Source: a virus
Lineage: Duplodnaviria; Caudoviricetes
Strand: one strand, 5' to 3'
Length of the DNA: 64,000 nt
IMG/VR virus record: IMGVR_UViG_3300012020_000005
Coordinates: 17,460 to 81,459 of that record
Every line of letters begins with the position of its first letter. Position 1 is the first letter of the stretch. Of this stretch, positions 1-32,948 are shown piece by piece. The notes below the pieces were generated by a model. It had not been told where the DNA came from and ran no database searches. It saw only the letters and a list, made by a program, of their open reading frames with translations. The position numbers and the translations under genes are program-made.

Positions 1-110
1 GTTTGGGATTAAGTAAACCAAAATATTCGAGTACTCACGAATAAAAACAGGTACAAACTAATTTTTAAATTAATCACAGTTACCCAAATGTTTTGTAGTA
101 GCTGTTATAA
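1..110 (+). repeat. attC-like site S0 (left part outside window)
   Basis: TTTGGG/CCCAAA arm and GTTATAAGTAGCTTT core at 104-118, complementary to AAAGTTACTTATAAC at 582-596. Confidence 0.7.
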
Positions 111-122
111 GTAGCTTTTATT

Positions 123-353
123 ATGCTTACAATTAAATTACTAAAAGAATTGATTAAAGACGTTCCAGATGATGCTATATTTTCTTCAATGCGTTTTGGA
201 AATAATAACGAAATGGATTTTTTTGTTATTAAAAGAGCGTTATTAGTTGAAGGTAGTAGAAATAAGTTTTTTGTGTTAAACCAAATGGGGACACATTGGG
301 GAGAAAAATGGGAAAAAGGAGAATATAAAATAATTAAAACAATAGAAAAATGA
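123..353 (+). CDS. Hypothetical protein, cassette 1
   Basis: 76-aa ORF just after the GTT core, overlapping the next ORF (ATGA). Confidence 0.7.
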   Translation: MLTIKLLKELIKDVPDDAIFSSMRFGNNNEMDFFVIKRALLVEGSRNKFFVLNQMGTHWGEKWEKGEYKIIKTIEK

Positions 354-571
354 CACAAACAATAGAATGTAAATGTGGTAAAACTTTTGCCGCATCAGGA
401 GTTCCTTATTGCTACACAAATGAGCAATGGCAAGAAGATTTAAGAGAATACGTAAAACAAGGTTGTACAGTTTCTTTAGTTGAAGATGATAAAGTACAAT
501 TTCAACAATGTACTTGCAATGAATTAGATGAACTTAAAGGCATTTTCGACACCGTTGTTCTTTTGGAGTAG
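350..571 (+). CDS. Small Cys-rich hypothetical protein, cassette 1
   Basis: 73-aa ORF with CKC and CTC motifs; stop lies just before site S1. Confidence 0.7.
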   Translation: MTQTIECKCGKTFAASGVPYCYTNEQWQEDLREYVKQGCTVSLVEDDKVQFQQCTCNELDELKGIFDTVVLLE

Positions 572-589
572 CGATTGTCCTAAAGTTAC

Positions 590-721
590 TTATAACGTTA
601 AGGTGCTTTGCAATATGGCGGTTTCAAGGCACTGCACCTTCAATTTAGAACTAATGTTTAATCAAGGCACTAACACTGAATTTTGCACTTCACCCGCCAT
701 ATTGCAAAGCACGTGTTATAG
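590..721 (+). repeat. attC-like site S1
   Basis: TTATAAC...GTTATAG with a perfect 19-bp inverted repeat, GTGCTTTGCAATATGGCGG (603-621) / CCGCCATATTGCAAAGCAC (694-712). Confidence 0.9.
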
Positions 722-739
722 CCAGTTAATTTTAATCAA

Positions 740-952
740 ATGTCAAAATTAAATTTGTATCAAAGAAGAAAACAAGAGTGTGGTTATGTTCATGGGATGT
801 ACAAACCCGATAAAGCTGATTTTTATTTAATCAAGCAAAATGTAGATGAGTATCTAATTGCTTATTTTGATGGGGAGTTTTGGGAAAGTAAAGTAGATAG
901 GCTTATCTGTTGGAGAGAAATACCTAAATCGGATATTTTAGCTCCGTTTTAA
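740..952 (+). CDS. Hypothetical protein, cassette 2
   Basis: 70-aa ORF filling the space between S1 and S2. Confidence 0.7.
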   Translation: MSKLNLYQRRKQECGYVHGMYKPDKADFYLIKQNVDEYLIAYFDGEFWESKVDRLICWREIPKSDILAPF

Positions 953-956
953 TTGG

Positions 957-1050
957 CTATAACGTGATGCGTATATGAGAAGTGGCACTTGTAGAATGTT
1001 GAAATTTAGCACAAATGTTTATGTGCCATTTCTTATATACGCTGTTAGCA
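957..1050 (+). repeat. attC-like site S2
   Basis: CTATAAC...GTTAGCA; arms GCGTATATGAGAAGTGGCAC / GTGCCATTTCTTATATACGC (two G:T pairs). Confidence 0.9.
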
Positions 1051-1141
1051 GTAGTACGGATTTAAACCACAAATGCTCAATCAAAGAACTGAACCTTTTT
1101 CTTTTCTTTTTTGTGCGGTTGGAAAATAAAAAATTAAAAAT

Positions 1142-1963
1142 ATGATTGAGATAAATAAAAATTACAACGAAAGCAATTTAGAAACAATGGAGAAAATGCC
1201 TGATTGCTTTGTGGACTTAACGGTAACAAGCCCACCTTATGATGGATTAAGAACATATAATGGTTATTCATTCCCTTTTGAGGATATTGCAAATGAGTTA
1301 TTTAGAATTACAAAAGATGGTGGTGTATTAGTTTGGGTTGTTGGTGATGCAACTGTGAAAGGTAGTGAAAGTGGAACTAGTTTTAAACAAGCATTGTTTT
1401 TTAAAGAGGTAGGTTTTAATTTGCACGATACAATGATGTATAGAAAGATAAACTACATACCATTAACACATAATAGATATGAGCAGGAGTTTGAGTATAT
1501 GTTTATTTTTAGCAAAGGAAAGCCTAAAACCTTTAATCCAATAATGGTTGAATGTAAAACAAAAGGAAGTAAAACAAAAGGCAGAACATTTTACCAAACA
1601 AATAGCCAAAATAAACCAACAGAAGCGCACAAAAACGATGCCGTAAAAGAATACAAACAAAAAGGAAATGTATGGGAAATACCTACTAATGCAGGCACAA
1701 AAGGACACCCCGCACAATTCCCTGAGCAATTAGCTAACGACCATATTATATCATGGTCTAATGAAGGTGATTTAGTTTACGACCCATTCATGGGAAGCGG
1801 AACAACAGCAAAAATGAGTATCTTAAATAACCGTAATTGGATTGGAAGCGAAATATCTTCTGAATACTGCGATATTATTGAAGAACGAATTAAAAAAGCG
1901 TGGGAAGAAAAAAGAAAAGAAAAAGATTTAACGCAGAAAACTCTATTCGTAGATGGAATGTAG
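1142..1963 (+). CDS. DNA amino-methyltransferase (N4-C/N6-A, beta class), cassette 3
   Basis: Catalytic TSPPY near the N-terminus, HPAQFP, and SAM-binding DPFMGSGTT near the C-terminus. Confidence 0.92.
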   Translation: MIEINKNYNESNLETMEKMPDCFVDLTVTSPPYDGLRTYNGYSFPFEDIANELFRITKDGGVLVWVVGDATVKGSESGTSFKQALFFKEVGFNLHDTMMYRKINYIPLTHNRYEQEFEYMFIFSKGKPKTFNPIMVECKTKGSKTKGRTFYQTNSQNKPTEAHKNDAVKEYKQKGNVWEIPTNAGTKGHPAQFPEQLANDHIISWSNEGDLVYDPFMGSGTTAKMSILNNRNWIGSEISSEYCDIIEERIKKAWEEKRKEKDLTQKTLFVDGM

Positions 1964-1969
1964 TATTAC

Positions 1970-2102
1970 TGCTAACGGCACTTGGCTTGTGGTCAGGTGC
2001 GGAATTTGAAAAACAAAACTTAAAATATAGAACGAATGATGATAGTAGAACAAATGTTGAATAACGCACCAACCCCGCTATTGCATATAGCCGATGTTAG
2101 TG
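1970..2102 (+). repeat. attC-like site S3 (imperfect arms; loop holds the start of the next ORF)
   Basis: TGCTAAC...GTTAGTG; GGTGCG/CGCACC and GGCT/AGCC pairings. Confidence 0.8.
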
Positions 2103-2827
2103 GCAGTGCTTTGTTCAATGCTGATTGTATGGATATTTTACCTCTTATTCCTGATAAATCGGTTCAACTCATTTTGGCAGATTTGCCTTATGGAACTACT
2201 AATTTGAAATGGGATAGTGTGTTAGACCTAAACAAGTTGTGGCAAGAATACGAAAGAATAATTACTGATAATGGTGCAATAGTTTTAACAGCATCTCAGC
2301 CATTTACAACGGTTTTAATAAACTCAAATCCTGCATTATTCAAATATGAATGGATATGGTTAAAAGATAAACCAAACAACTTTGCACTTGCTAATAAAAT
2401 GCCAATGAAATATCACGAAAACGTGTTGGTTTTTTATAAAAAACTGCCAAAATACAATAAGCAAATGGAAAAACGAGATGGTGGTGGAAAAAGGTATAAA
2501 TATGCAGTAAACTATGAAAACCAACAAAGCGAACATTTAACGCTAAAAAATGGTGCAAAGTTTTTTGATATGGAATTTAAAAACCCATCAAGTGTGCAAA
2601 AATTCTCAACAGGGAGAAGGCAGGATTTAAAACACCCAACACAAAAACCGTTGGAAATGATGAAGTATTTTATTGCGACATATTCAGATGAAAACGATTA
2701 TGTTCTTGACAATACAATGGGAGTAGGAACAACTTGCGTAGGAGCAAAGGAGTTGAACCGAAAGTTTATCGGGATTGAAAAAGAGGTAAAATATTATGAC
2801 TTAGCAGTTGCTCGTGTGTTCGGGTAG
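2036..2827 (+). CDS. DNA amino-methyltransferase (beta class), cassette 4
   Basis: ADC, DLPYG, HPTQKP and DNTMGVGTT motifs; first 20 codons lie inside site S3. Confidence 0.92.
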   Translation: MMIVEQMLNNAPTPLLHIADVSGSALFNADCMDILPLIPDKSVQLILADLPYGTTNLKWDSVLDLNKLWQEYERIITDNGAIVLTASQPFTTVLINSNPALFKYEWIWLKDKPNNFALANKMPMKYHENVLVFYKKLPKYNKQMEKRDGGGKRYKYAVNYENQQSEHLTLKNGAKFFDMEFKNPSSVQKFSTGRRQDLKHPTQKPLEMMKYFIATYSDENDYVLDNTMGVGTTCVGAKELNRKFIGIEKEVKYYDLAVARVFG

Positions 2828-2833
2828 CATTGC

Positions 2834-2932
2834 CACTAACGTTTTGCGGCTTTGTGTCTGTTTGCCCCTTGCACATAGCTTCAATTTACCACAAATATTG
2901 ATGGGGCAAATAGCACAAAACCGCTGTTATAA
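2834..2932 (+). repeat. attC-like site S4
   Basis: CACTAAC...GTTATAA; arms GCGGCTTTGTGTCTGTTTGCCCC / GGGGCAAATAGCACAAAACCGC with one unpaired base. Confidence 0.9.
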
Positions 2933-3002
2933 GCTGGCTGCGGTTAATTAAACGAAAATATAAATACGAAGAACAAAACAACTTTTAATAAATTTTTAAG
3001 CG

Positions 3003-3536
3003 ATGGGAATAGATAAAATAGGAAATAAGAAAAACTCATTTACGAGTAATAGTATTGAATACAGCACACCTTTGGCGATAGTTCAGCCATTAATAAACGA
3101 ATTTGGAATAACAAAAGATGTGTGTGCAAGCCAAACAAACCATAAGTTACCTGACTATTGGAATAAAGAAGATAATGCTTTGACAAAGGATTGGATTGGT
3201 AACTGCTGGATGAACCCGCCATTTGATAGAAACTTGGCAAAGTGGGTAAGAAAAGCATCTGATGAAGCCGATAAAAATGGAGGAACAAAGGTTTGTTTGA
3301 TACCTGTTAGGAGTAATACTAAATGGTGGGCTGAACTATCAATAAAATCGGAAATTCGTTTTATCAATGGCGAAGTAAATTTCAATGATGAACCAAGAGG
3401 TTTATGGATGGGAATGTGTATAATCATATTCGGAGAAAAAGCTAAAAAAGGAACATTCAGTATTATTGATTACAGGAGCGTTGGCAAAAATTTATTAAAA
3501 GTTGAAACGGAATTGTCAAACGAAGCAGGAACGTAG
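3003..3536 (+). CDS. Phage Dam-type N6-adenine DNA methyltransferase, cassette 5
   Basis: STP...DVCA...WMNPPF...LIPVRSNTKWW...IRFING layout of short phage adenine MTases. Confidence 0.85.
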   Translation: MGIDKIGNKKNSFTSNSIEYSTPLAIVQPLINEFGITKDVCASQTNHKLPDYWNKEDNALTKDWIGNCWMNPPFDRNLAKWVRKASDEADKNGGTKVCLIPVRSNTKWWAELSIKSEIRFINGEVNFNDEPRGLWMGMCIIIFGEKAKKGTFSIIDYRSVGKNLLKVETELSNEAGT

Positions 3537-3544
3537 CAGATTGC

Positions 3545-3624
3545 TTATAATAGGCGCGCGCTTGGCGTCAGGCTTGTGAGCTTGCTCCAAGCGTGGAGTT
3601 GGGCGAAGGGCGCGCCTATTGGGC
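3545..3624 (+). repeat. Variant attC-like site S5 (AAT...ATT core, GC-rich)
   Basis: AATAGGCGCGC / GCGCGCCTATT perfect inverted repeat; C:G core pair replaced by T:A. Confidence 0.75.
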
Positions 3625-3644
3625 AAAGGTGCTGTGCGCCTTTT

Positions 3645-3777
3645 GCCCAACGGTTTGGGGCTTTACGTAGTGGGGGATTATACCCACAAAAGCCCAATAG
3701 AATTACAAAAGTATAATAAAAGCACAAAAGTATGATAGAAGAACAAAAGCCCCCATTACGTAAAACCCCTGTTAGTA
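3645..3777 (+). repeat. attC-like site S6
   Basis: GCCCAAC...GTTAGTA; arms GGGGCTTTACGTAGTGGGGG / CCCCCATTACGTAAAACCCC. Confidence 0.9.
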
Positions 3778-4397
3778 GCAGTACGGGTAATAGTGATTGG
3801 TCTGGCAACAAAAATTCAATTTATAAAACGCTTGGGGCTTCCAACCATACGGATAAGGAACGCCAAAGTGAAGATTATTACGCAACTGAACCGAAAGCAG
3901 TTGAATTGCTTTTAGATTTAGAGGACTTTTCACAACTATATGTTTGGGAATGTGCCTGTGGTCAAGGTCATTTATCGGAAGCAATGATAAAAAAAGGAAT
4001 AAAAGTAAATTCAAGTGATTTAGTTTTAAGAGGATATGATAAGGCTTATATGTATGATTTTTTAAGCGAAGAAAACAAAGAGTGGAAAGGTCATATTATT
4101 ACAAATCCACCTTATAAATTCGCAAAGGAATTTGTTTATAAAGCATTATCAATAGTTCCAAATGGTTGTAAAGTTGCAATGTTTCTAAAAGTTCAATTTT
4201 TAGAAGGTAAGGCACGAAAGAAACTATTTGAAATATATCCACCTAAAACTGTTTACGTTTCAAGCAGTCGTTTATTATGTGCCAAAAATGGCGAATTTGA
4301 ACAAATGATTGCTGGTGGTGGTTCGGCTGTTGCTTACGCTTGGTTCGTTTGGGAAAAAGGATTTAATGGTCAAACAGAATTACAATGGTTCAATTAG
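3732..4397 (+). CDS. DNA amino-methyltransferase (NPPY type), cassette 7
   Basis: DYYATEP, WECACGQGHLS and IITNPPY motifs; first 13 codons lie inside site S6. Confidence 0.85.
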   Translation: MIEEQKPPLRKTPVSSSTGNSDWSGNKNSIYKTLGASNHTDKERQSEDYYATEPKAVELLLDLEDFSQLYVWECACGQGHLSEAMIKKGIKVNSSDLVLRGYDKAYMYDFLSEENKEWKGHIITNPPYKFAKEFVYKALSIVPNGCKVAMFLKVQFLEGKARKKLFEIYPPKTVYVSSSRLLCAKNGEFEQMIAGGGSAVAYAWFVWEKGFNGQTELQWFN

Positions 4398-4416
4398 CAA
4401 CGAATGGTAGTATTGC

Positions 4417-4547
4417 TACTAACGGACGGCGATTGTCGTGGTTGGGATAAAACAAAGACTGATAATTAAATTTAAAACTAAACTGAAAAATGAAAACAAA
4501 TGTAAAAGTTAAAGACAAAACCCAATCACTACAATCGTATGTTAGTG
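4417..4547 (+). repeat. attC-like site S7
   Basis: TACTAAC...GTTAGTG; arms CGATTGTCGTGGTTGGG / CCCAATCACTACAATCG. Confidence 0.9.
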
Positions 4548-4975
4548 TTTCGGTTACGGCTTCCGAGTTGCGAATAGGGAATTTAGTACACTTTCCTTTT
4601 ACGGCAGAAAATGTAAAAGTATTAGGAATTAATGCTCGTGAATATAAATCTGAAATAATTCATACAATCTCTTTTGAAAAAGGAACGAATTTATATTGTG
4701 AAAAGCCTTCTGTATTAAAACCTATCCCATTGTCGAATGAATGGTTAGAAAAATTAGGATTTTATATTGTTTCTGATAATGAATATAAAACAAGATTTGA
4801 TATTCTAAAAGAAGGCAGAATTGATTTTATAAGAGTAAAACACGAATTGTGTGATTCTGGAGTTCGGTTTGAAGGAGCTATGTTGAAAGGAATTGATTAT
4901 GTACACCAATTGCAAAACTTCTATTTTATAATTACTGGCTCGGAATTGCAGATTGGTTCTATAACTGAACACTAA
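4490..4975 (+). CDS. Phage hypothetical protein (ELRIGN-type), cassette 8
   Basis: 161-aa ORF; starts in the S7 loop and its stop codon overlaps the next TAAC core. Confidence 0.75.
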   Translation: MKTNVKVKDKTQSLQSYVSVSVTASELRIGNLVHFPFTAENVKVLGINAREYKSEIIHTISFEKGTNLYCEKPSVLKPIPLSNEWLEKLGFYIVSDNEYKTRFDILKEGRIDFIRVKHELCDSGVRFEGAMLKGIDYVHQLQNFYFIITGSELQIGSITEH

Positions 4976-5024
4976 CGTTTTGCAGCTATGCGCTCGTTTT
5001 AATGGCGCATAGGTGCTGTTATGC
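4970..5024 (+). repeat. attC-like site S8 (shortest, 55 bp)
   Basis: CACTAAC...GTTATGC; arms GCAGCTATGCGC / GCGCATAGGTGC. Confidence 0.9.
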
Positions 5025-5085
5025 GCTGGCACGGTTGATTAAACGATAAACTTAAATTGAAACACAAAACAAAATTTTTATTAAA

Positions 5086-5304
5086 ATGAGCGAGGGTAAA
5101 AAAGCAAAAGAACTAATTGATAAGCACCGTAAATGGGTTAATCAAATTGATGGCAGTTACTCCGAAACAGAGTATGCTAAAAAAGCTGCGCTTATTACCG
5201 TTAATGAAATTCTTGAAGTAGAAAGCAAGAAAATGATAAACGGTGATGTGAATGAATATGATTATTGGGAACAAGTAAAAAAGAAAATAAATGGCAGTAT
5301 TTGA
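5086..5304 (+). CDS. Hypothetical protein, cassette 9
   Basis: 72-aa ORF overlapping the next gene. Confidence 0.7.
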   Translation: MSEGKKAKELIDKHRKWVNQIDGSYSETEYAKKAALITVNEILEVESKKMINGDVNEYDYWEQVKKKINGSI

Positions 5305-5812
5305 TAAAGAAAAATTGTTTGATGCAGAGAAGGTAAACAAAAGCCTTGAAAGCATTGTGTGGGGAACACCAACAGAGTTGTTTGCCCCGATTGATAAAGA
5401 GTTCAGATTTACACTTGACGTATGTGCAATATCAGAAAACGCAAAGTGTGAAAGGTTTTTTACACCACAAGATGACGGACTTGCCCAAAGTTGGGAGAAT
5501 GAAGTTTGCTGGTGTAATCCACCATACGGGAAAGATGTAGTAAAGTGGTGTAAAAAAGCATTACAGGAAAGTAAAAGAGGGGCAACAACGGTATTGCTGA
5601 TACCTTGCAAAACGAACACAAATTGGTGGCACGACTTTGTAATACCTTATGCTGAAATTCGTTTTTTGCGTGGCAGAGTGGCTTTTGTTTACCCTAACGG
5701 AGAGCAGAGCAAACAAGCATTACCGTGGCCGCTTGCTTTTGTCATTTATCGTGGGTCGGAAGATTTTAATAAAAATTTTGAACCGCAAACTCTTTTTGGA
5801 AACGAAATGTAG
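5291..5812 (+). CDS. Phage Dam-type N6-adenine DNA methyltransferase, cassette 9
   Basis: WGTP...FTLDVCA...DDGL...WCNPPY...TNTNWW...IRFLRGR. Confidence 0.88.
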   Translation: MAVFDKEKLFDAEKVNKSLESIVWGTPTELFAPIDKEFRFTLDVCAISENAKCERFFTPQDDGLAQSWENEVCWCNPPYGKDVVKWCKKALQESKRGATTVLLIPCKTNTNWWHDFVIPYAEIRFLRGRVAFVYPNGEQSKQALPWPLAFVIYRGSEDFNKNFEPQTLFGNEM

Positions 5813-5819
5813 TGCTTGC

Positions 5820-5950
5820 GTATAACGGCTACGGCTATGTGCAGTAGCGGATTTGAAACACAAAACTTAAAATTATGATACGAAGATTATTTGAAAAACT
5901 AAGGCTGATTAAACCACGTCAGCCGCACTTGCCACAAACCAATGTTAGTG
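5820..5950 (+). repeat. attC-like site S9 (imperfect arms; related to S3)
   Basis: GTATAAC...GTTAGTG; loop shares GCGGA(A)TTTGAAA(A/C)ACAAAACTTAAAA with S3. Confidence 0.8.
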
Positions 5951-6129
5951 GCAGTTTTAAAGAGTGGTATTTAGAATTTCGCAACGAAATGGCAAAATCT
6001 TTTGGTGTTAATTATAGCATTTCTATTGCAAGTTGGACTTTTAGTGAAAATCATAAACACTATTACGATAGGGGACTTACACCAAAAGAGGCAGTATTGG
6101 AATATGCAGCGTCAAAAAATTGCCACTAA
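5875..6129 (+). CDS. Hypothetical protein, cassette 10
   Basis: 84-aa ORF starting in the S9 loop; stop overlaps the TAAC core. Confidence 0.65.
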   Translation: MIRRLFEKLRLIKPRQPHLPQTNVSGSFKEWYLEFRNEMAKSFGVNYSISIASWTFSENHKHYYDRGLTPKEAVLEYAASKNCH

Positions 6130-6260
6130 CGGTTAGTATATGGAAAGTAGGCGATAGGAAGGTATGAACCAATGGAAGCCTAAACGACACACTAAAACAA
6201 GGACAAGAGCCTTGAAATGTTACCAAGTGTTTAGCCTATTTTTTATATACATTGTTATGT
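6124..6260 (+). repeat. attC-like site S10
   Basis: CACTAAC...GTTATGT; arms GTATATGGAAAGTAGGC / GCCTATTTTTTATATAC (three G:T pairs). Confidence 0.88.
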
Positions 6261-6365
6261 ACTGTATAGTGACTTTTAAGCAATAAACTTTAATTAAAGA
6301 ACGAAACTAAGTAATAATATTTTGTGCGGTGGCAAATTGCTGAGGCACGAAGCAAAACAAAGACA

Positions 6366-7340
6366 ATGATTAAACTATACAAAGGCGATTGCCTTATTGA
6401 AAGCGATAAAATAGAAAGTGGTAGTGTTGATTTGATATTAACTGATTTGCCATTTGGTACTTTAAAAGGTGCTACATTGACAAGTTCAAAAACAAGAAAC
6501 AATGAGTATTCTTGGGATAATATTATTGATACGAATAAAATTTATAAGATAGCAAACAGAATACTTAGGAAAAACGGTAAAATGTTATTGTTTTGTCAAG
6601 AGCCATTTACAACTGAATTGATAAACAAAGCAATACCAAATATACCTTTAAGTTATAGAGCAATATGGGAAAAGAATGATTTTGCAAATTGTTTGTTTGC
6701 AAAAAAAGCAATGGTAAATTTTTACGAAGATATTCTAGTTTTTAGCAAAAATGAAGATACAGAAAAAGCACACCCTTTGAGAGAGTATTTTTATACTGAA
6801 TACGAAAAAACAGGTTTGACCTATAAAGAAATAAACAGAGATTATTTAGAAACCACTTTTGAAGGTGGCGGTGGAATGGCTTACAATATGCTTTGTAGAA
6901 CACGTTTGTATTTTAGTATGCCAACAGAAGAGGCTTATAGTAGATTGCAGAAAACTGGATATTTTAAAAAGCCTTATGAAGAGCTTAAAATAGAAGACGA
7001 AGCGTTTAAAAACAAAATGAAAAGCACATTTAACCTTTGGGAAGGTAAAAAATACAAAAGTAATATACTTAAATACAAAAAAGATTATGATGGCTACCAC
7101 CCAACGCAAAAGCCAGTTTTATTGTTAGAGGACTTAATAAAAACTTTTAGCAACGAAAATGATTTAGTAGTTGATTTAACTATGGGTTCTGGTAGCACTA
7201 TGGTAGCCTGCAAAAACACCAATAGAAACGGAATAGGTATTGAAATGAATGACGAGTATTTTAGTATTGCTGAGAAAAGGGTGGAAAAAAATATTATTAC
7301 GACTGGTGAGCAAACAAGTATATTAGACGAACTGAACTAA
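6366..7340 (+). CDS. DNA amino-methyltransferase (beta class) with internal insertion, cassette 11
   Basis: GDC, DLPFG, HPTQKP and DLTMGSGST motifs; likely start ATG 6366 (MIKLYKGDCL), although the ORF track begins at 6324. Confidence 0.9.
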   Translation: MIKLYKGDCLIESDKIESGSVDLILTDLPFGTLKGATLTSSKTRNNEYSWDNIIDTNKIYKIANRILRKNGKMLLFCQEPFTTELINKAIPNIPLSYRAIWEKNDFANCLFAKKAMVNFYEDILVFSKNEDTEKAHPLREYFYTEYEKTGLTYKEINRDYLETTFEGGGGMAYNMLCRTRLYFSMPTEEAYSRLQKTGYFKKPYEELKIEDEAFKNKMKSTFNLWEGKKYKSNILKYKKDYDGYHPTQKPVLLLEDLIKTFSNENDLVVDLTMGSGSTMVACKNTNRNGIGIEMNDEYFSIAEKRVEKNIITTGEQTSILDELN

Positions 7341-7341
7341 G

Positions 7342-7357
7342 CTATATTGTACATAAC
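7342..7357 (+). repeat. Terminal half-site of the cassette array (no hairpin follows)
   Basis: CTATATTGTACATAAC, complementary to GTTATGTACTGTATAG at 6254-6269. Confidence 0.75.
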
Positions 7358-7407
7358 TATTTACTAAGCGTTACTAAAGAGGTAAAACACTAATAAAATT
7401 AAGACTT

Positions 7408-7668
7408 ATGATTACCACAATAGAATTTAAATATGGTTTTATTTATAAAGGAGTTAGGTATGCTTGGAAAAATAAAAAATTATACAGACTTCCTTTTGAA
7501 AGAAATCTAAGAACTTACAGATTAAAAGAAATCCCTCAATATGTTTTTAAATCAACGCAAGTTTATAATGTGCAAAGAAGTAAGTTAACTATAAATAAAT
7601 TAAAATTTTTAACAGAAAAAGTTGATTGGAATATTCAAACAATAGTAGAGGATGAATGTCCTTTTTAA
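7408..7668 (+). CDS. Hypothetical protein
   Basis: 86-aa basic ORF with AT-rich leader. Confidence 0.65.
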   Translation: MITTIEFKYGFIYKGVRYAWKNKKLYRLPFERNLRTYRLKEIPQYVFKSTQVYNVQRSKLTINKLKFLTEKVDWNIQTIVEDECPF

Positions 7669-16093: not shown

Positions 16094-16824
16094 AAAATAT
16101 ATTCAAAGACCGTACAGGTGAAATACACATTACTAACGAAGGTTACGAAGTTGAGATTATTGAGTATTATGGTAATAATAGTTGTACTATAAAATTTAAA
16201 AATGGAGTGGTTATTAAAGATAAATCGTATCATAGTGTAAGAAAAGGAAGAATTAAAAACCCATACCATCCTTCTGTCTATGGTGTTGGTTATTTTGGTC
16301 AAGGGAAATATAAAGCAGTAATTGCCTATAAAAGTACTAAATATTATATAACTTGGATAGATATGATAAAAAGATGTTATTCAGAAAAAAGTCAACAAAA
16401 TAACCCAACATATAAAGATTGTACAGTAGATGAAAGATGGCACAACTTTCAAGTCTTTGCTGAATGGTTTGAAAACAATTTCAATCCTGAATATATGGAC
16501 AGATGGTGTTTAGACAAAGATATTCTACAAAAAGGTAATAAAGTTTATTCTCCTGAAACTTGTGTTTTTATACCACATATAATTAATAATGTGATTAAAG
16601 AGGGGGGTAATAAAGGAGTTTATAAATCAACAAGGAGTTCTTACAAGTGTCAATTAACAATAAAAGGCAAAACACGTTTTTTAGGGTCTTATAAAAATAA
16701 AAAAGAAGCTTATGAAGTGTATAAAGAAGCTAAGAAAAAGTATATTAAACAAATTGCTGATGAATGGAGGGATAAAATAGGTAAGAATATTTATGAAGTA
16801 CTTTATAAATGGGAAATAAAATAA
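16090..16824 (+). CDS. HNH-type homing endonuclease-like protein
   Basis: KDRTGE N-terminus, W.DM..RCY, WHNFQVFAEW, LDKDIL...YSPETCVF, AP2-like C-terminal region; paralogue of 55160-55903. Confidence 0.7.
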   Translation: MKNIFKDRTGEIHITNEGYEVEIIEYYGNNSCTIKFKNGVVIKDKSYHSVRKGRIKNPYHPSVYGVGYFGQGKYKAVIAYKSTKYYITWIDMIKRCYSEKSQQNNPTYKDCTVDERWHNFQVFAEWFENNFNPEYMDRWCLDKDILQKGNKVYSPETCVFIPHIINNVIKEGGNKGVYKSTRSSYKCQLTIKGKTRFLGSYKNKKEAYEVYKEAKKKYIKQIADEWRDKIGKNIYEVLYKWEIK

Positions 16825-20286: not shown

Positions 20287-23200
20287 TTATTCGTCTTTTT
20301 TAAATATTCTACTCGCAAATGCGTAGTTATAAAAAAGATTTTCATCGTTAGTCTGGTAGTGGGTGTAAGACCTCCTATAATCTAAAGGGTCAGCAAATCT
20401 AAAATAATCTTTATAAAAAGGTATTAATTTTTTAATATAGTTATTTTTTTCCTCTGTTGTACCTCCTAAATCACTTATTTTAGCCCAATCTTCTAATTTA
20501 CCCTTAATCATAAGAGGATTATCTAAAGTATGGTAAAGAGAACTTGGTAGTCCAATAGTCGAACCTATTTGTTCAGTAGCTAAACGTGTTAATAGAACGT
20601 CTGTCATTGCAAGTCCAACCCCTACTTCATCTTGGTCATCGTTGTATCTGCTCAATAAAAGTGCCATAAAAGCTAAGGCATTTGCAAACCCTATATCAAC
20701 CAAAACTCGTTTTATATTCTTTTTTTGATTTTCATCGGCATTTTCATAAATTTCTCTAATATTTTTAGGATTTGAAAAAACTTTACCCATAAAATTAGCA
20801 ACACTTCTCCAAGAACCTTCTTGCAATATTCCACTCTCACTGAGGTTAAAGTGCTGATACTTAAAGCGTTGTGGGAGAGCAGACAGAAGATAATTCAAGT
20901 GACTAAGAAAAAAATTAAATTTTGCATCTCTTGCCCAAATAGATTTTTGACTTTGCGGAATTTGGCTATCAATTCTATTTGTAAAAGCTAAAGCTCTTGT
21001 GGATATTGATAATTTCTTTTCTTCTAAGTATTCTTGAACTGTTTGGTTTGGTCTTGGTTTTATCTTTTTCTCCATCCTTTGTAAAAATTCAGGATTTGTA
21101 AAATCTAATACTCCATCTTTTATTGCCGAAACAAAATCAGGAGCAAATAATTCATTTTTAGTCCATTCAGACTTAACATCTCCTTTAAAACCCTCCGAAT
21201 TTAATTTTTGTTTGAATTGATTAAAATCTAATATTCTTCCATCAACTATTCTATAGTCATTTAATATTCCAAATACTCCACGTTCTACTATTGGATAGTT
21301 AGCTATCTCATGTAGTTTTGAATTAGCACTAATAGCTAACCTCAAACCTTTACTATATTGAGAGTCTTCAAAACGGTGAACTGCATTAAAAATACCTAAT
21401 GATTCTCCAATAACGTTACCAACAGATTTAGATTCAAGCCCCATAGCTTCTTTGGCATCACTAGCAGCATATTTCATAAACATTTTGTTCCCTAGATTAG
21501 CAGCAATAGGATTGATAGTCTCTCCTATTATTCTCTCCATAAACTTTTGTGTTGCTCCTTGCATTACGTTAGTTATAGGTACTAAAACTGTTCCTAAATT
21601 GACTTTCTTAGCAAATTTATTTAAAGAAACTAAAACTTTACCCACATCTATTGTTCTATCTCCTGCTTTTATTTCATAAGAAAAGTTTTCTTTAACTCCA
21701 TAGAAATTACTCTCCATGAAAGATTTAAACATTTTTAAAGAGTTTGTAGCATCAGCTTGTTTCTTTTCAAAAGTACTATTTGATAACACATCTTCTATTA
21801 CAAACATATCCCCAATATTTTCCTGTCTTGCTTTAAATAAAGAAGCTTGTTTTCCCCACATAGCATAAGCATAAAGATAGTTTTTAGTTAACTCCTTCTT
21901 ATCTTCAAGAGGTGTATTATAGTATGTTGGTACAGTATATAATCCATTAGTATCTAAAGTTCCTTTTTCTTGTTCTTCGGGTCTAAATGTTGCCCAATCT
22001 CTTACTGACTGAACTAAAGCTTGTGGATTGGTGTTGATGTATCTTTCTACAGTTGTTGCTCTTACTTGGGGCATCATATATCTATCTCGTTTTCCTGTCA
22101 ATTCTTGATAATCAATCATCAAGTCATTGTACTTTAGAATCTCTTTTCTAAGTTCCCACAAATCATTATTTTTAGTAGTTCCTGGCTTTCTATCTCCAGT
22201 CTCATCTAAATCAAACATTTCATAATACGCTTTATTTTTTACTTGGTCAAGATAAGCTTTACTCCATTGCTCCTTTTTAGCATCTCTATTTTTTATAAAT
22301 TCTTGATTTATATTGTCATTTAGTTTTTCCATATAAGAAAAGCTAGGGTTTATTTTAATTAAATCTTTTCTTTTTATAAAATCCTCTACTGTTAAAGTAC
22401 CTGCTTCTAATTGTTGTTTTGTCTCTGTATATCCAATAGGCTCTGTTCTTTTTAGATAAGGTAAAAGTTTTGTTTTTGCATATTTCAACAATGCCTCTTC
22501 CTTTTCTTGTTGCGACATATCTTCTGTAAAGTACCTAGAATATGCTTTAGATATATTTCCGCCCTCTACTATTCTTTGAGCCCCTCTTATTGAAGCTACT
22601 CCATTTGGAGTTGTATTCTCTAAGATAAAACTCAACTCATCTTTCCCACTGTCTTTAACGTAGTTTGTATAAGCGTCATTAACAACAGTTTCTGCTTCTA
22701 ACTCTGATTCAACTTCTTCTTCATTTTTTAAAATGTTTCTAGCTTCGGTATATAGACTTTCTAATTGAATTTGAGCTAATTTAATTTCATCTTTTTGAAC
22801 GTTGTTCATCTGTATGAAATTTGTTTCACTAGGTTTATTGTAAACACTATTTTCTCTTAAAACTCTGTTTATAATTGCTTGTTGCTGTCTTATATTAGTT
22901 ATTAAGTCTGTTGCTTCTTTTGTGCCGTTATTTCTAAGCTTATCTACTAAGCCTGTATTTGTCTTAAACCCTTCATAGTAAGAATCGGGAAATGAAATAT
23001 AGGAATTGTTTTCTAAAAATTCTAATTTTTCATTTGTTGTTTGTAAGGCTTCTAAATCTTTTATGAATTGTTCGGGAAGTTCTATTGCTCCTTCACTTTT
23101 ATATAAATCAACAACGGCTTTATTATATTCTCTTTCAGATTTAAAGTTAGAAGGTTTAATAGTTTTATCTTCAACTTTATTATACCACCTTAAAGCCTCA

Positions 23201-26200
23201 TCTGTTTTATAAAAATCTTGTTCTATTAAGGAAATTTGATTTAATCCTACAACTGTTTCTGCGGTGTCTTTCTCTCTTTGTGACAACTTTGTCCATGAGT
23301 CTTTTTCTACTCCATTTTCATATTTATCAATATCTACAATATAGCGACCTAAATTATCATCATATATTTCTTTTATACCCGCCAATAAACTTCCATCAGA
23401 CGCTCTAGGATTAGAATCTATTTGTCTGTTCTGACTAATTTTTTTCCACTCTGCTTGTGTTTCTTTTGTAATGTTGTTTCCTGCCTCAATTCTAATTTGA
23501 GTAGATTGTCTTTTATATTCATCATTTACTCTTAAAGCTCTTTCATCTACATTTAGTAATGATATAGGGGCATCTTGTCCTGCTAATTGAAGTTCATGTT
23601 TGTTTTTTCTATCAATAAAATCTTGGGTAAAATAAGAGTTATATTTCCATTTAGTAAAATTACTCCATTCATTTTTAAACTCTGCTTGTAACGATAAGGT
23701 ATCTAATGAATTTTCAGATAAAGTGTCAAAATAAGTAGAAAAATCCGTATCTTTTGTTACTTTACTGAAAGAAAATCCTTTAACCTCTATTATTTTATTT
23801 ATTATCTCTACTTTCTTATTTAATTCTAACTCTTCTGCTTTTACAGGGTCAATCTCATTTATAATAGAATCTCCGCCTTGATGCAATAACTCTAGGTTTT
23901 TCTGATTTAGATTAGGAATATTAAGTAAACTTTTAAATGGTTTTTGAAAGTATTCAATACCTTGCAAATTCATTCTTTCAATTATATTTCCCGCCACATT
24001 CAAAACTCCTGAACGAGCTAATAGCAAAGAACCTAAATGTGCATGGAAAAAGTCAGTATCTTTTTGAACTCCTTCAATACTGTTCTCCATATACTTAATA
24101 TAGGTGGCTCTATTATCTCCAACCATTTCATTTGCATCAGCAATCTTTTCAATCATGTTTTTAAAGGATTCTTTTCTTAATTTAGAAATATCCCCTTGCA
24201 TACCAAACATTTGTTTTGCAATATCATCAATAGAGGCTATCATTTCCTTTTCAAAATTGTTTAAAGGATTTAGAGTTGCTTTAACCTCTGATAATGATGG
24301 TAATACTCTGTCTTTTATACCCTGAAACAGAATATTTTCAGTTTGTGATAGTGGGTGGTCTCCCTCTTGTGTTTTATCAATTGCTCTACGTATTGTATTT
24401 ACTTGTGAAGATGTAACTCTAATTAAAGATGCTATTCCTTTTAGTTTTTCAGCATTTTCTAATTCGGCAACTACTCTTTTTTGCTCCTCTGTTAATCCTT
24501 CTGTAGATGTTGTTGGTGTATTTATTTCTCTTTCGGCTCTTTCTAATAAAGATTTTTCAACGGAGTTTCTCGTTTTACTAGCTTGTTCTCTAAGGTTTTC
24601 TAATAATTTTGTACTTGCGCTGTACAGTTTATGCGCTTCAGTACTTGCACTTGAAATAGAAAACAATACATCAGTATCTTGGGTATTGGTATTCAAATTT
24701 ATAGTCTCTTTAAATAAATTTCTATAAACTTGTCTTTCTAAGTTTTTTAATTCTAAAGCATAATCATTACTAAAATATGCTCTAATTCTATCAAAAAACT
24801 CATTGAAAAACTCTTTAATCTTATTTATTATTGAGTCTTCAATTTGATTTGTGTTTCTAGCTTGGAAATTTTCTTTTATGGAGTTGGCTATAACTTTTCC
24901 TAATATCTCTTTTCTTGTTGTTTCTTCATTACCGTATATACGCATGTATTCTTCGGCGTGTTGTTGCCACTCCTTAGTTTTATGAATATTTCGTAGTACG
25001 TTCTCTTTTTTCTCTAGTGGTATAGAAGATTCAATAAGGTGTGCTACCTCTTCAACTAAATCATCTTGTTCAATTACACCACCTTTAAAAGCTACAACTT
25101 TATTAGCTAAATCTACTAATGCTTTTGCCGAAATAGGTAGATTATTTCTTTTAGAATAGTTTTTTAAATAGTCTTCAAAAGAAACTGTTTTTATTCCAAA
25201 TTTCTTTAAGAGGTTCATTAATTTCTCTTGTAATTCATTCTCAGGAATAAATTCTTCTTGTGTTGATTTTATTTTTGTAGTTTGATTTTTGAATTCTTTA
25301 TTTACTAGTATATCAGCAACAGTTTCTTTTGAGAATTGTTTTTCTAATTCTTTTATTGGTTGATTTAAATCTTCTAATTTTACAGTTTTTTCTTCGCCGT
25401 TTTTATTTGTTAAAGTTACGTTAGTTCGTTTATTTTCCTCTGTTATTGTTAGAGTATCATCAGCATGTATTGTAACAGCGTTTATACCAAATTGTCTTTT
25501 AAATAAGTCTTTAGCTATTTCACTATTTATCTTTTGTTTTTCATAGGTTTGTCCTTGTGGTTTGTAATGTATTTTTTCATTTTCTTTATAGGATTCTCCA
25601 CTTAAAATATCAGATTTTACCATATTATTAATAAAACCTTCTGTTGTTTCGATATTTGTATTTGTTGAGATTGAATACAGTTCTTTAAATCCACTCACAG
25701 TATTTACTCCCGCTTGTAGTGGCTCTCCTTGTGTATTTTTTAAAGCATCTGAATAGTTGTCAAATACTTTACCATCTTGTGTTTGGTATTTTAGTTTTGG
25801 GGCGGTTTGGGATAACGAAAAAGCCACAACAGGGTTTTGAGTGTCTGCTTGTGTTATAGGTGCTTCATACCAATCAAATCCATTTTCATCTGTTACTATT
25901 TCAACTTCTTTTTCTTTTTTTAGTATTTCGGCGATTTCTTCATATTTACGAGCAACTGTTTGTTGAGTGTCTGATAGGTCTGAGATGTTGAAACCTTGTT
26001 TGTTCTCAGCAACGTTGTACATAGAGGGTTGACTAAGTGTTTCTACATTTGTATAATCATCAAAAATATATACTTCATTGTCATCTTTACTATATACATA
26101 ATAAGTGTCATTATTTGTTTCTTCTCCGCTATAAAGAAGTGTCTTTACATTAGGTATAGGCTCTCTTTCCCATTGTTCAACAAAACCTTTATAAGTAAAA

Positions 26201-27849
26201 ATTTCTTCCATTGAACTGCGGCTAACAACTTCTATTTCCTGCTCATTTGAATAAGTTACTATATAATCTTGACCTAAGTATCCTATCATATCACCAGAAG
26301 TTAAAGTCCTCTTATTTTCATCTATTGAATATTGAATAGAGTATGGAGGAGTGCTTCCTTCACCTGTTGAAACGTACCCCTCAATAACACTCAAAGTATA
26401 TGGTGTAGGAAAACGTAAAGAAGTTGCTCCACTTAGTGATGCTTCTTTTATTGCTTCTCTTACCATTCTTTGTTCCCAAACCTTTTGAGATGCTATGAAT
26501 TGTTTTTCTTGTGGGGAAAGTGCTTTAAAAAACTCTTGTTCTACTTTAGACTTCTCTTTTTCTAATTGTTTTAAAAATTCATCTTTAGAGAAAAAGTCTA
26601 AACTATTCTTTAATACATCCTTTGCTTCTTGTAAGCTATCTAACACCTCTGGAATAACTTCGTTATCTACAAAAGGGTAGTATTGATTAGACATCTTTAC
26701 TATCTTCAACTCTGTTCCAAAAAAATCAGTAGTAAAATTACTCCCTTCTTCTTTGAAAATTAATTTATCAAAAACACTGTTTTTTACTCTATTTTTTGCC
26801 TCTTTATTAATATTAGATTGTTTTATGAATAATTCTTTAGCTTTGTTTTTTTGATAAGTGTCTGATTGAAGCTCTGCTACATAATAATCTTGTCCATCTT
26901 GCCATACACGAATATGACCAAACATTCCTTTGTTTATAGGTAAATCTCCAACAAAGTTTTCTTTTAGTTGTTCAATCATGTACTTATGTATCTCTTTTAA
27001 ATCAGTAAAAGGCACATCTGATACGTTTCTTCTTAATATGTTACTATTGCTTTCGCCTTTTAAAATATAAACTTCGTTTGTAGAATCCCATTCATCTATT
27101 GCTCTAACAACATTAGAATTTCTCAAATTTACTTTAGTATCTGTTGTCCTACTATAATTCTCAATCCAAGCATCAACAGCTTCTTTTGTTCCTGCTGTAC
27201 CTATATATTGATAAATATTATTGTCATTTGCTTGACTTTCATAACCTTCTTCTACTGCTACCCAAACATTATCGTTTAATTGTTTAGGTACATATTTAAT
27301 ATTTTGTCGCCCACTAGCTTTAAAGTCTCCTGAAAAGTGACCTGTTACTCCATGTTCAATTGGTGCGTTTAAAATTAAAGTTTTAGCTTCTCCATAATTA
27401 CCTGAACCAAGGTTATCCATACCATAGTCAGCATAAGAAGAAGTTGTAATTCTTTCTAGTGGCATTATATTAGCCCTAACTGTTGCTTCTAGCTCATCAA
27501 ATGAAATCTTTTTTTGACCTTTATAATTATCTTCAATTACTTGATTAATTAAATCTTTTTCTATTTGTTTTATCCCACCACCATTAAGTATTTGTTGTAC
27601 GGTTATTGGGTTAACCATTTTACCTCGCATTTCTACAAAAGACTTATTATCAAAAACCGAAAGAGTTAATGGTAATTTATCTGCTACTCTTGGTATTTCA
27701 ATTTCTTTTGAATAAGTCTCCATAAAAATATCTAAAGCCTCATTAAAATCCTTGACTTGTGCATTATTCAATATTTCTTGAAATATTTCATTATTCTCTT
27801 GAACACCAATTTTATTTCCATTATTATCGTATATTATAGTACAGCTCAT
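20287..27849 (-). CDS. Giant internal virion / ejection (polyvalent-type) protein, 2520 aa
   Basis: Size and position in the virion module; GHIR...ELQSD segment; zincin-like EEVAH motif; hydrophobic C-terminus. Confidence 0.7.
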   Translation of the reverse strand: MSCTIIYDNNGNKIGVQENNEIFQEILNNAQVKDFNEALDIFMETYSKEIEIPRVADKLPLTLSVFDNKSFVEMRGKMVNPITVQQILNGGGIKQIEKDLINQVIEDNYKGQKKISFDELEATVRANIMPLERITTSSYADYGMDNLGSGNYGEAKTLILNAPIEHGVTGHFSGDFKASGRQNIKYVPKQLNDNVWVAVEEGYESQANDNNIYQYIGTAGTKEAVDAWIENYSRTTDTKVNLRNSNVVRAIDEWDSTNEVYILKGESNSNILRRNVSDVPFTDLKEIHKYMIEQLKENFVGDLPINKGMFGHIRVWQDGQDYYVAELQSDTYQKNKAKELFIKQSNINKEAKNRVKNSVFDKLIFKEEGSNFTTDFFGTELKIVKMSNQYYPFVDNEVIPEVLDSLQEAKDVLKNSLDFFSKDEFLKQLEKEKSKVEQEFFKALSPQEKQFIASQKVWEQRMVREAIKEASLSGATSLRFPTPYTLSVIEGYVSTGEGSTPPYSIQYSIDENKRTLTSGDMIGYLGQDYIVTYSNEQEIEVVSRSSMEEIFTYKGFVEQWEREPIPNVKTLLYSGEETNNDTYYVYSKDDNEVYIFDDYTNVETLSQPSMYNVAENKQGFNISDLSDTQQTVARKYEEIAEILKKEKEVEIVTDENGFDWYEAPITQADTQNPVVAFSLSQTAPKLKYQTQDGKVFDNYSDALKNTQGEPLQAGVNTVSGFKELYSISTNTNIETTEGFINNMVKSDILSGESYKENEKIHYKPQGQTYEKQKINSEIAKDLFKRQFGINAVTIHADDTLTITEENKRTNVTLTNKNGEEKTVKLEDLNQPIKELEKQFSKETVADILVNKEFKNQTTKIKSTQEEFIPENELQEKLMNLLKKFGIKTVSFEDYLKNYSKRNNLPISAKALVDLANKVVAFKGGVIEQDDLVEEVAHLIESSIPLEKKENVLRNIHKTKEWQQHAEEYMRIYGNEETTRKEILGKVIANSIKENFQARNTNQIEDSIINKIKEFFNEFFDRIRAYFSNDYALELKNLERQVYRNLFKETINLNTNTQDTDVLFSISSASTEAHKLYSASTKLLENLREQASKTRNSVEKSLLERAEREINTPTTSTEGLTEEQKRVVAELENAEKLKGIASLIRVTSSQVNTIRRAIDKTQEGDHPLSQTENILFQGIKDRVLPSLSEVKATLNPLNNFEKEMIASIDDIAKQMFGMQGDISKLRKESFKNMIEKIADANEMVGDNRATYIKYMENSIEGVQKDTDFFHAHLGSLLLARSGVLNVAGNIIERMNLQGIEYFQKPFKSLLNIPNLNQKNLELLHQGGDSIINEIDPVKAEELELNKKVEIINKIIEVKGFSFSKVTKDTDFSTYFDTLSENSLDTLSLQAEFKNEWSNFTKWKYNSYFTQDFIDRKNKHELQLAGQDAPISLLNVDERALRVNDEYKRQSTQIRIEAGNNITKETQAEWKKISQNRQIDSNPRASDGSLLAGIKEIYDDNLGRYIVDIDKYENGVEKDSWTKLSQREKDTAETVVGLNQISLIEQDFYKTDEALRWYNKVEDKTIKPSNFKSEREYNKAVVDLYKSEGAIELPEQFIKDLEALQTTNEKLEFLENNSYISFPDSYYEGFKTNTGLVDKLRNNGTKEATDLITNIRQQQAIINRVLRENSVYNKPSETNFIQMNNVQKDEIKLAQIQLESLYTEARNILKNEEEVESELEAETVVNDAYTNYVKDSGKDELSFILENTTPNGVASIRGAQRIVEGGNISKAYSRYFTEDMSQQEKEEALLKYAKTKLLPYLKRTEPIGYTETKQQLEAGTLTVEDFIKRKDLIKINPSFSYMEKLNDNINQEFIKNRDAKKEQWSKAYLDQVKNKAYYEMFDLDETGDRKPGTTKNNDLWELRKEILKYNDLMIDYQELTGKRDRYMMPQVRATTVERYINTNPQALVQSVRDWATFRPEEQEKGTLDTNGLYTVPTYYNTPLEDKKELTKNYLYAYAMWGKQASLFKARQENIGDMFVIEDVLSNSTFEKKQADATNSLKMFKSFMESNFYGVKENFSYEIKAGDRTIDVGKVLVSLNKFAKKVNLGTVLVPITNVMQGATQKFMERIIGETINPIAANLGNKMFMKYAASDAKEAMGLESKSVGNVIGESLGIFNAVHRFEDSQYSKGLRLAISANSKLHEIANYPIVERGVFGILNDYRIVDGRILDFNQFKQKLNSEGFKGDVKSEWTKNELFAPDFVSAIKDGVLDFTNPEFLQRMEKKIKPRPNQTVQEYLEEKKLSISTRALAFTNRIDSQIPQSQKSIWARDAKFNFFLSHLNYLLSALPQRFKYQHFNLSESGILQEGSWRSVANFMGKVFSNPKNIREIYENADENQKKNIKRVLVDIGFANALAFMALLLSRYNDDQDEVGVGLAMTDVLLTRLATEQIGSTIGLPSSLYHTLDNPLMIKGKLEDWAKISDLGGTTEEKNNYIKKLIPFYKDYFRFADPLDYRRSYTHYQTNDENLFYNYAFASRIFKKDE

Positions 27850-31764: not shown

Positions 31765-32948
31765 TTGACAACTCTTACAATAAAGTAAGATTCTTGAAAA
31801 ACGCTTGGTCTATTGACCTACGTTAACTTCCATCAGAGATTGCCCTCTCTGTAATATGTTTAAACAAGCTTGGTCGTCTGCATTCATAGCTAAGCCACAC
31901 TTAACACATTCAAACAAACTTTGTGTTTTTCTGTTTTCTTTACAAGTGTGTCCACAATTTGAACATTCTTGAGAAGAATAAGCAGGATTAATTTTTACAA
32001 CATTTGTTTTGTATTCTAACATTGCAAAGAAAGTTCCCCAACTACAGTCTAAAATATGTTTAGCTAATTTGCTATTTTTTACCATTTTAGCAATTTGTAA
32101 GTCTTCTCTAATTACTGTTGAGTAGTTATTAGCTAAACTTCTACTTTGTTTGTGTAGAAAATCTTTCCTTACTCTACTTACTTTTAAATACAAACGTTGT
32201 AAAACTTTTACTTGTTTCTTGTAATTACTTCCACCTCGTTTCATTCTTGATAGCTTTCTTTGCTCAACTCTTAACTCTTTTAAATATTGAAATAAGTGTC
32301 TAGGATTTTCTACAATCTCACCGTCTGACGTTGTTAAAAATCTAGCAATCCCCATGTCAATAGCACAAACAGATTGATTCTCTCTGATTTGTTCTAAATC
32401 TTGTTCTTTTACAACTACTTTTAAATATAGTCCATCCGCTTCTTTGACTATATTTGCTGTTCTTAGTTCTCCTTTTGGTATTTTTGAATTAAATAATTTA
32501 ACTTTACCAAATTTGGGTAAATTAAACTTACCATCTTTTTCAAACCTTAAAATAGGCTCTAAATTTCTTAACCTCGCCTGTTTAAATGGTAAATTTATCC
32601 ATTTATCTTTTTTAGCCAATTTTGGTTTTGAAGTTTTATTTCCTTTCTTTAAGTCAGTAAAAAACTTTTTATACCCTAATTCTAATCTTTCTAATGTAGC
32701 TTGGAGTGTTTGGGCGTTTACTTGTGTTAACCAATCAAAATCTTTTTTAGCTTCTGTAAGTTGTTTAGATAAATCATAGTAATTAATATTTACCCCTTTT
32801 TTAAAGGACTCTTCTCTAACTTCAATTGCTAAATTATACACATATCTGCATATCCCTATTTGCTCTTCAAACTTGCGTTCAACAGCTTTATTAGGTTTTA
32901 GTTTATATGTATATGTTTTTATCATTGTATTTTTATATTAATTGTAGT
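31765..32948 (-). mobile_element. tnpB-only IS200/IS605-family element
   Basis: Right end GAATCTTAC-TTTATT-GTAAGAGTTGTCAA (hairpin + TCAA); left boundary inferred after TTTGAG from frame restoration; no tnpA. Confidence 0.7.
31810..32925 (-). CDS. tnpB: TnpB RNA-guided endonuclease
   Basis: N-terminal HTH (YKLKPN), RuvC-I IDMG, RuvC-II REDL, CxxC...CxxC zinc finger, RuvC-III NADD. Confidence 0.92.
   Translation of the reverse strand: MIKTYTYKLKPNKAVERKFEEQIGICRYVYNLAIEVREESFKKGVNINYYDLSKQLTEAKKDFDWLTQVNAQTLQATLERLELGYKKFFTDLKKGNKTSKPKLAKKDKWINLPFKQARLRNLEPILRFEKDGKFNLPKFGKVKLFNSKIPKGELRTANIVKEADGLYLKVVVKEQDLEQIRENQSVCAIDMGIARFLTTSDGEIVENPRHLFQYLKELRVEQRKLSRMKRGGSNYKKQVKVLQRLYLKVSRVRKDFLHKQSRSLANNYSTVIREDLQIAKMVKNSKLAKHILDCSWGTFFAMLEYKTNVVKINPAYSSQECSNCGHTCKENRKTQSLFECVKCGLAMNADDQACLNILQRGQSLMEVNVGQ

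Follow-up and report, generated by a model that had tools for sequence, protein, structure and literature searches.

The DNA analysed here is a stretch of 64,000 nucleotides (nt), called the window throughout, which covers bases 17460-81459 of an 81.5-kb viral contig (IMG/VR record IMGVR_UViG_3300012020_000005; CheckV completeness 57%). Its beginning is occupied by an array of small gene cassettes separated by imperfect hairpins, which an initial annotation of the window had described as integron-like. When the 17 kb upstream of the window were included in the sequence reading, a single array was delimited, running from contig position 16370 to window position 7357. It starts about 1.1 kb before the window, spans 8.6 kb in total and contains 13 cassettes, three of them upstream and 10 inside the window. 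The array is preceded by a gene for a family-A DNA polymerase, whose best relatives are found in Cellulophaga phi38:1-type phages (35%), and then by two small open reading frames (ORFs). The features that lie inside the window are listed in Table 1.

Table 1. Sites, cassettes and junction of the array, in window coordinates (S0 to S9, hairpin sites).
Feature	Position	Strand	Description
Site S0, inner hairpin	1-103	+	Site cut by the window edge; left TAAC 18-21 nt upstream of the window
Cassette 4, body	104-596	+	Right core GTTA at 104; ORFs 123-353 and 350-571 (without family match); terminal TAAC 593-596
Cassette 5	597-963	+	S1, AAC 594/GTT 715; perfect 19-bp inner stem 603-621/694-712; ORF 740-952
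Cassette 6	964-1976	+	S2, AAC 961/GTT 1044; N6/N4 DNA methyltransferase 1142-1963
Cassette 7	1977-2840	+	S3, AAC 1974/GTT 2096; start codon in loop at 2036; N6/N4 DNA methyltransferase 2036-2827
Cassette 8	2841-3551	+	S4, AAC 2838/GTT 2926; Dam-type methyltransferase 3003-3536; degenerate terminal core (TAAT 3548-3551)
G+C-rich stretch without ORF	3552-3651	+	100 bp, 64% G+C; two small hairpins; CAAC at its end
Cassette 9	3652-4423	+	S5, AAC 3649/GTT 3771; stem 3657-3679/3747-3769; start codon in loop at 3732; DNA methyltransferase 3732-4397 (phrog_799)
Cassette 10	4424-4976	+	S6, AAC 4421/GTT 4541; start codon in loop at 4490; ORF 4490-4975 (phrog_10066, function unknown)
Cassette 11	4977-5826	+	S7, AAC 4974/GTT 5018, shortest site (41 nt between cores); ORF 5086-5304; Dam-type methyltransferase 5291-5812
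Cassette 12	5827-6130	+	S8, AAC 5824/GTT 5944; start codon in loop at 5875; ORF 5875-6129
Cassette 13	6131-7357	+	S9, AAC 6128/GTT 6254; DNA methyltransferase 6366-7340 (phrog_67); terminal TAAC 7354-7357
Array-to-backbone junction	7354-7410	+	Last TAAC, without hairpin; 50 nt; ATG of an 86-aa ORF

All cassettes are built in the same order: an imperfect hairpin site comes first, then one or two + strand ORFs, then a 3' flank that extends up to the next TAAC. The sites follow one formula, with TAAC, 5 nt, a stem arm of about 20 bp, a loop, the second stem arm, usually 1 nt, and GTTA. The left core TAAC of each unit consists of the final four bases of the preceding unit, the 5 unpaired bases after it start with G, and a 5' flank of 10-12 bases follows GTTA before the ORF. 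The distance from core to core ranges from 41 to 123 nt across sites. Loops are variable and often contain an A-rich leader and the start codon of the cassette gene; in 5 sites the start codon lies inside the loop and the reading frame continues across the 3' arm and the GTT core. In the first site of the array (contig 16370-16487), a short ORF begins in the loop and stops at a GCT core. The phrog_10066 profile starts at residue 23 of the ORF at 4490-4975, indicating that the N-terminus encoded by the site is an extension. The array sites thus present the attC-type feature, namely imperfect inverted repeats, AAC...GTT cores and hairpins of variable length.

The initial annotation had drawn attention to the complementarity between the two ends of each cassette, and the flank pairs that it quoted were all found in place. 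The 3' flank of a unit pairs with the bases right after that unit's own GTTA and not with the flanks of its neighbours. End pairs were counted by comparing the 14 bases from GTTA with the 14 bases ending in the downstream TAAC, with at least 13 paired positions and G.T allowed. Thirteen such pairs were found in the 8.6-kb array, whereas 500 shuffles gave 0.54 on average and 4 at most, and their density was 1.5/kb in the array compared to 0.1/kb in the remaining contig, which confirms that the hairpins separate cassettes with private complementary ends. The lone imperfect position of the flanks is constant: in every clean pair of the array, a G at base 11 of the 5' flank faces a T of the 3' flank. 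When the junction of a putative circular cassette was rebuilt by joining its own 3' flank to its own site, the predicted fold of the single-stranded DNA was stabler than that of the standing site for 13/13 cassettes, with a predicted folding energy lower by 6.2 kcal/mol on average (p = 0.0002). These results indicate that the two cores of one standing hairpin usually come from different cassettes, and the initial annotation was correct in reporting that they often do not match.

Hairpins that carry leaders and start codons could also be regulatory modules, providing the leader, the start codon and the end of the transcript in a manner resembling the promoter/stem-loop units of T4-type phages, and being shuffled by homologous or microhomology recombination without any dedicated recombinase. 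The A-rich leaders and the start codons in the loops agree with such a role. However, a terminator scan called none of the inter-cassette hairpins (8 calls, compared to a shuffle mean of 4.8), no T runs follow the site hairpins, and the private complementarity of the cassette ends has no regulatory rationale. The count of sigma-70 promoters was under the shuffle mean. A search of Rfam returned only chance microRNA-like matches on the perfect hairpin S1, and no RNA family.

Evidence on mobility came from related phages, the initial annotation having named cassette gain and loss in relatives as a check of its proposal. Segments of the array are matched in Muminvirus, a genus of Flavobacterium siphoviruses whose members have 3-5 consecutive methyltransferases in arrays of the same architecture. 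Between phages mumin6-2 and mumin6-3 (99.9% identity), the difference is a single 506-bp block that starts just after TAAC, ends with TAAC and consists of a hairpin and its downstream gene. Comparison of six Muminvirus-type genomes and contigs (95-99.9% identity) revealed 7 distinct cassette indels of 412-1584 bp, and in 7/7 both breakpoints lie directly after TAAC (14/14 breakpoints). The bases shared between breakpoints number 5-7 in five of these indels and 14 and 41 in the other two, and 2/7 are located where the last TAAC meets the backbone. In contig L002, the closest relative of the present phage (93-96% backbone identity), homology ends at most 6 nt away from the first site's AAC. Taken together, the TAAC-bounded indels and an array whose first element is a hairpin and whose last is a TAAC without one indicate that the unit consists of a site and its downstream gene, with the crossover at the left core. 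The initial annotation was therefore right in proposing a mobile, integron-like array, but the insertion at GTT that it had assumed is not supported, since the crossover maps to the left TAAC and the hairpin goes with the downstream gene. The concentration of 14 breakpoints out of 14 at one 4-nt core, with so few shared bases in 5/7 indels, also argues against the shuffling of regulatory modules by homology.

The cassette ends of this phage were also compared with those of mymlan6-1 or filifjonk9-1, and the best-conserved DNA that it shares with them consists of these ends, outside the genes. Site S4 and its leader (window 2824-2970) are 87% identical, and the 3' end of the unit (3509-3550) 88% identical, to a Muminvirus-type cassette, while the enclosed proteins are unrelated (E = 0.08). 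Similarly, window 1043-1145 is 90% identical and window 1890-1977 85% identical to the relatives, and the methyltransferases bracketed by these segments are only 27% identical. Conserved ends around varying cargo are expected if the site family stays one continuous sequence in a circular intermediate. Sites and leaders conserved between otherwise unrelated cassettes would, on the other hand, also provide homology for exchange, as the regulatory-module explanation supposes. When the array was compared by BLAST to 120 related viral loci, no high-identity copy of the window cassettes was found, the only matches being at 75-78%. No left-boundary sequence is shared by the arrays across loci, and a search for relatives through the downstream backbone gene retrieved one distant contig only, which has no array.

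The same kind of site is widespread. At least 120 IMG/VR contigs match one narrow site pattern, with up to 16 sites per locus, nearly always on a single strand according to our site scanner. Among 273 cassettes from the 120 viral contigs listed, the longest ORF lies on the sense strand of the site in 259, and position 11 of the flanks is a G.T pair in 212 and a G-C pair in 1. The inner helix, compared across 117 distinct sites, shows covariation at about 20 positions, which indicates that it is under selection. It also contains fixed wobbles: stem position 14 is G.T in 93 of these sites, and stem position 11 in 61. Pairing at the fixed G.T positions is possible on the gene-sense strand only, which suggests that this strand is the likely substrate; their conservation does not fit regulatory modules. 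The array type is common in aquatic flavobacterial phages and occurs in host chromosomes as well, and the present phage infects flavobacteria. Its array belongs to this integron-like cassette type of Bacteroidota and their phages by the form of its sites, their 5' placement, the private pairing of the cassette ends and the G.T at position 11 of the flanks.

The initial annotation had recommended a search of phage and host for a tyrosine recombinase. Neither an integron integrase nor any other tyrosine recombinase is encoded in the contig, where no match to PF00589 was detected and tblastn with nine array-linked recombinases found nothing, nor was a tyrosine recombinase found in contig L002 or in the complete 38-kb genomes of the Muminvirus phages filifjonk9-1 and mumin6-2. 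Elsewhere, however, arrays of this type are linked to one. Clustering of the larger ORFs around arrays yielded a single recurrent neighbour, a protein of about 265 aa present in 9 of the 120 viral contigs listed, whose gene lies on the same strand as the array and starts 42-53 nt after the terminal TAAC in 8/9 contigs. This protein combines an N-terminal SAM-like domain with a catalytic domain of the phage-integrase type. Its best model is archaeal XerA (168-192 bits, for a cut-off of 220), and the solved structures closest to it are XerA, then IntI4, then XerD. Against the integron-integrase model TIGR02249 it scores 140-150 bits, below the cut-off of 265, and the match is in two stretches, split roughly where integron integrases have an extra segment; its length is 265 aa compared to about 320 aa for these enzymes. 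In the present phage, the last TAAC is separated by 50 nt from an unrelated 86-aa ORF, and a 14-nt stretch of this junction is common to two recombinase-bearing contigs. This spacing and this 14-nt match suggest that the junction at 7354-7410 may be an attI-like remnant.

Relatives of the recombinase with 40-64% identity are encoded in genomes of Flavobacterium, Crocinitomicaceae, Chitinophagales, Cytophagales and other Bacteroidota. Around these genes, 77 sites lie on one strand in 331 kb beyond the 3' end of the gene, compared to 5 in 642 kb on the other side, and at least 2 sites are present in 20 of the 37 loci where the sequence was long enough. In 38/80 Bacteroidota loci, no more than 1.5 kb separates the recombinase gene from the end of the contig, as repeats would cause. 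Over 156 bp, a site in the Flavobacterium fragile chromosomal array and one in phage filifjonk share 90% identity. In the chromosomal arrays (loci L126-L205), the cassettes lie beyond the 3' end of the recombinase gene and their sites are on the opposite strand; in the phages and the four closest bacterial records, the array stands before its 5' end on the same strand, so that two platform arrangements exist. The absence of any recombinase in this phage and in Muminvirus is in line with regulatory modules that need none, but the constant geometry of the junction in front of the recombinase gene is not. Considering also the position of the breakpoints, the paired ends and the conserved wobbles, we regard the regulatory-module explanation as unlikely.

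A second alternative is that the region is a fragment of a classical integron, that is, a cluster of attC sites lacking an integrase (CALIN), whose true attC sites would be cut at G|TT by an IntI integron integrase of the host. AAC/GTT cores, imperfect hairpins of variable length and private end pairing are indeed the signature of attC. A published screen of 10,705 phage genomes with integron tools reported 17 attC clusters without integrase (Qi et al. 2023, PMC9892861). One of them, in Polaribacter phage P12002L, is a CALIN with two methyltransferases and two attC sites described as having 'divergent directions' and taken as ordinary attC (PMC9892861). These sites were called as attC by HattCI/Infernal, and one of the two tested recombined with attI1 in Escherichia coli under the action of IntI1 (PMC9892861). 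In P12002L we found at least 6 sites like those of the present array, and they lie on the sense strand of the phage's methyltransferase genes, which means that this report touched the present site family. The P12002L CALIN and the present array have in common the kind of site, its placement on the sense strand, the methyltransferase cargo and the lack of an integrase. Three observations nevertheless oppose a classical integron: the breakpoints fall at the left TAAC and the hairpin moves with the downstream gene, the array-linked recombinase is a short protein with a split, sub-threshold match to the integron-integrase model, and the core-adjacent spacers of 5 nt and 1 nt are unlike those of attC. 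We therefore consider this alternative quite improbable. The system is published only in part, as the P12002L CALIN; the reversed polarity, the Xer-like recombinase and the spread in Bacteroidota were not described in that report, and in open-access text we found no published account of any of the three.

The likeness to integrons is nonetheless extensive. In both, single-gene cassettes stand in tandem, sites are folded imperfect palindromes with AAC/GTT cores and variable loops, one site is formed by the two ends of the cassette in the circle, gain and loss occur at the core triplet, site families are common and cargo is varied, and a tyrosine recombinase lies, in the related arrays, beside a junction site devoid of hairpin. 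The differences concern polarity and enzyme. The site stands 5' of the gene, whose start it often encodes, crossover takes place at the left TAAC instead of G|TT of the right core, and in phages the genes point towards the recombinase, which is short, Xer-like and below the IntI threshold. The spacers of 5 and 1 nt, the G.T wobbles at fixed positions and an outer pairing of 13-16 bp compared to 7 also set these sites apart. Seen from the other strand, the array is arranged like an integron in which every gene is backwards. Integrons are reported to be rare in Bacteroidota and, to our knowledge, the published phage integron examples are fragments.

Insertion next to a fixed tetranucleotide also recalls single-strand transposons of the IS200/IS605 kind or non-autonomous derivatives of these, which are mobilised by an HUH (Y1) transposase and insert 3' of a tetranucleotide. 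As in these elements, the same tetranucleotide ends the unit, a hairpin is subterminal, no target duplication is seen and the features are strand-specific; moreover, the contig contains a TnpB-like gene at window 31813-32925 (- strand; 371-aa ORF matching the PHROG transposase family phrog_506, E 4.5e-93). However, no Y1 transposase (PF01797) was detected in the contig, the hairpin is at one end of the unit only, and tandem arrays beside a tyrosine recombinase are unlike the organisation of IS200/IS605. This origin appears highly improbable.

On this basis, we propose that the region is probably an orphan array, without a recombinase of its own, in which mobile integron-like gene cassettes stand in reversed polarity. 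Units would be excised as circles by recombination between two successive sites, and in the circle the two ends of the unit would join into one complete site. Insertion would occur by site-specific recombination at TAAC, preferentially at the backbone-side end of the array. Both reactions would be catalysed on the gene-sense strand, in its folded form, by a small Xer-like tyrosine recombinase, which may recognise there two helices split by a 5/1-nt internal loop. For the present phage, whose array may still be active, it would be supplied in trans by a chromosomal platform of the host or by a co-infecting phage.

Several points weigh against this proposal. The lack of a recombinase in the contig, which is 57% complete, and in complete Muminvirus genomes means that activity in trans has to be assumed. 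The stability of the inner hairpins does not distinguish the strands significantly (top strand better in 9/13, p = 0.17). The evidence of mobility comes from sister arrays and does not extend to the very units of this one, and microhomology-mediated deletion between hairpins could yield some of the indels, given the few bases shared at the breakpoints. Two degenerate cores, TAAT instead of TAAC at 3548-3551 and, in the first site, GCT instead of GTT, together with the 100-bp insert at 3552-3651, suggest some decay of the array. Finally, several of the bacterial records are metagenome bins, which may include phage DNA, and the site scanner is a heuristic of our own.

The wider proposal, towards which we lean more cautiously, is that Bacteroidota and their phages share a distinct gene-capture system, sister of the integron, in which a short XerA-like recombinase acts on the gene-sense strand of 5' sites, and that phages with or without a recombinase of their own draw anti-restriction methyltransferases and early genes from a common pool. 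The integron is the textbook gene-capture platform, and a mirror-image version with a simpler recombinase would, if true, be a second, independently organised route to modular gene acquisition. Other systems share some of these traits. The promoter-early stem-loop (PeSL) cassettes of T4-type phages likewise combine small early genes with conserved hairpin modules in a hyperplastic region and are shuffled between phages; unlike the present sites, PeSLs are one conserved repeat sequence that acts by homology, with no core triplets, private end pairing or linked recombinase. Elements that exploit Xer, such as the CTX phage, likewise rely on a Xer-type tyrosine recombinase, with folded single-stranded DNA as the likely substrate, but they integrate a whole genome at dif, whereas here tandem gene cassettes gather at a dedicated platform. 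Flavobacterium hosts and Muminvirus phages are culturable, which makes the system testable.

The cargo of the array includes six orphan DNA methyltransferases, of which three are of the N6/N4 type (two identified through Pfam PF01555 and one through phrog_67), two of the Dam type and one a member of phrog_799; the remaining cargo consists of small ORFs without known function. These methyltransferases and small early genes suggest a library for escaping host restriction, and through the cassette layout such phages can probably exchange means of protection from the restriction enzymes of their hosts. The proposed system would, if true, account for the sets of orphan methyltransferases that such phages gather against restriction systems. 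Annotation is affected too, as many 'hypothetical' early regions of such phages would be cassette arrays with gene starts inside recombination sites.

A short peptide, ...LF-x-N/D-E/G-M, closes several unrelated cassettes and opens one (window 1925-1963 and 5785-5812; contig L003, 3063-3095; end of the array in contig L093). It is encoded in the conserved cassette end, so that it appears to be part of the site family read as protein. The insert at 3552-3651 differs in composition from the array, whose G+C content is 34%, and is unique among all fetched loci; its final 11 bases are the left-boundary sequence of the array in contig L002.

Further downstream, the minus strand of the window contains three giant ORFs, at 20287-27849 (2520 aa), 34751-39499 (1582 aa) and 47054-53026 (1990 aa). 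The block of large minus-strand genes to which they belong probably encodes virion proteins.

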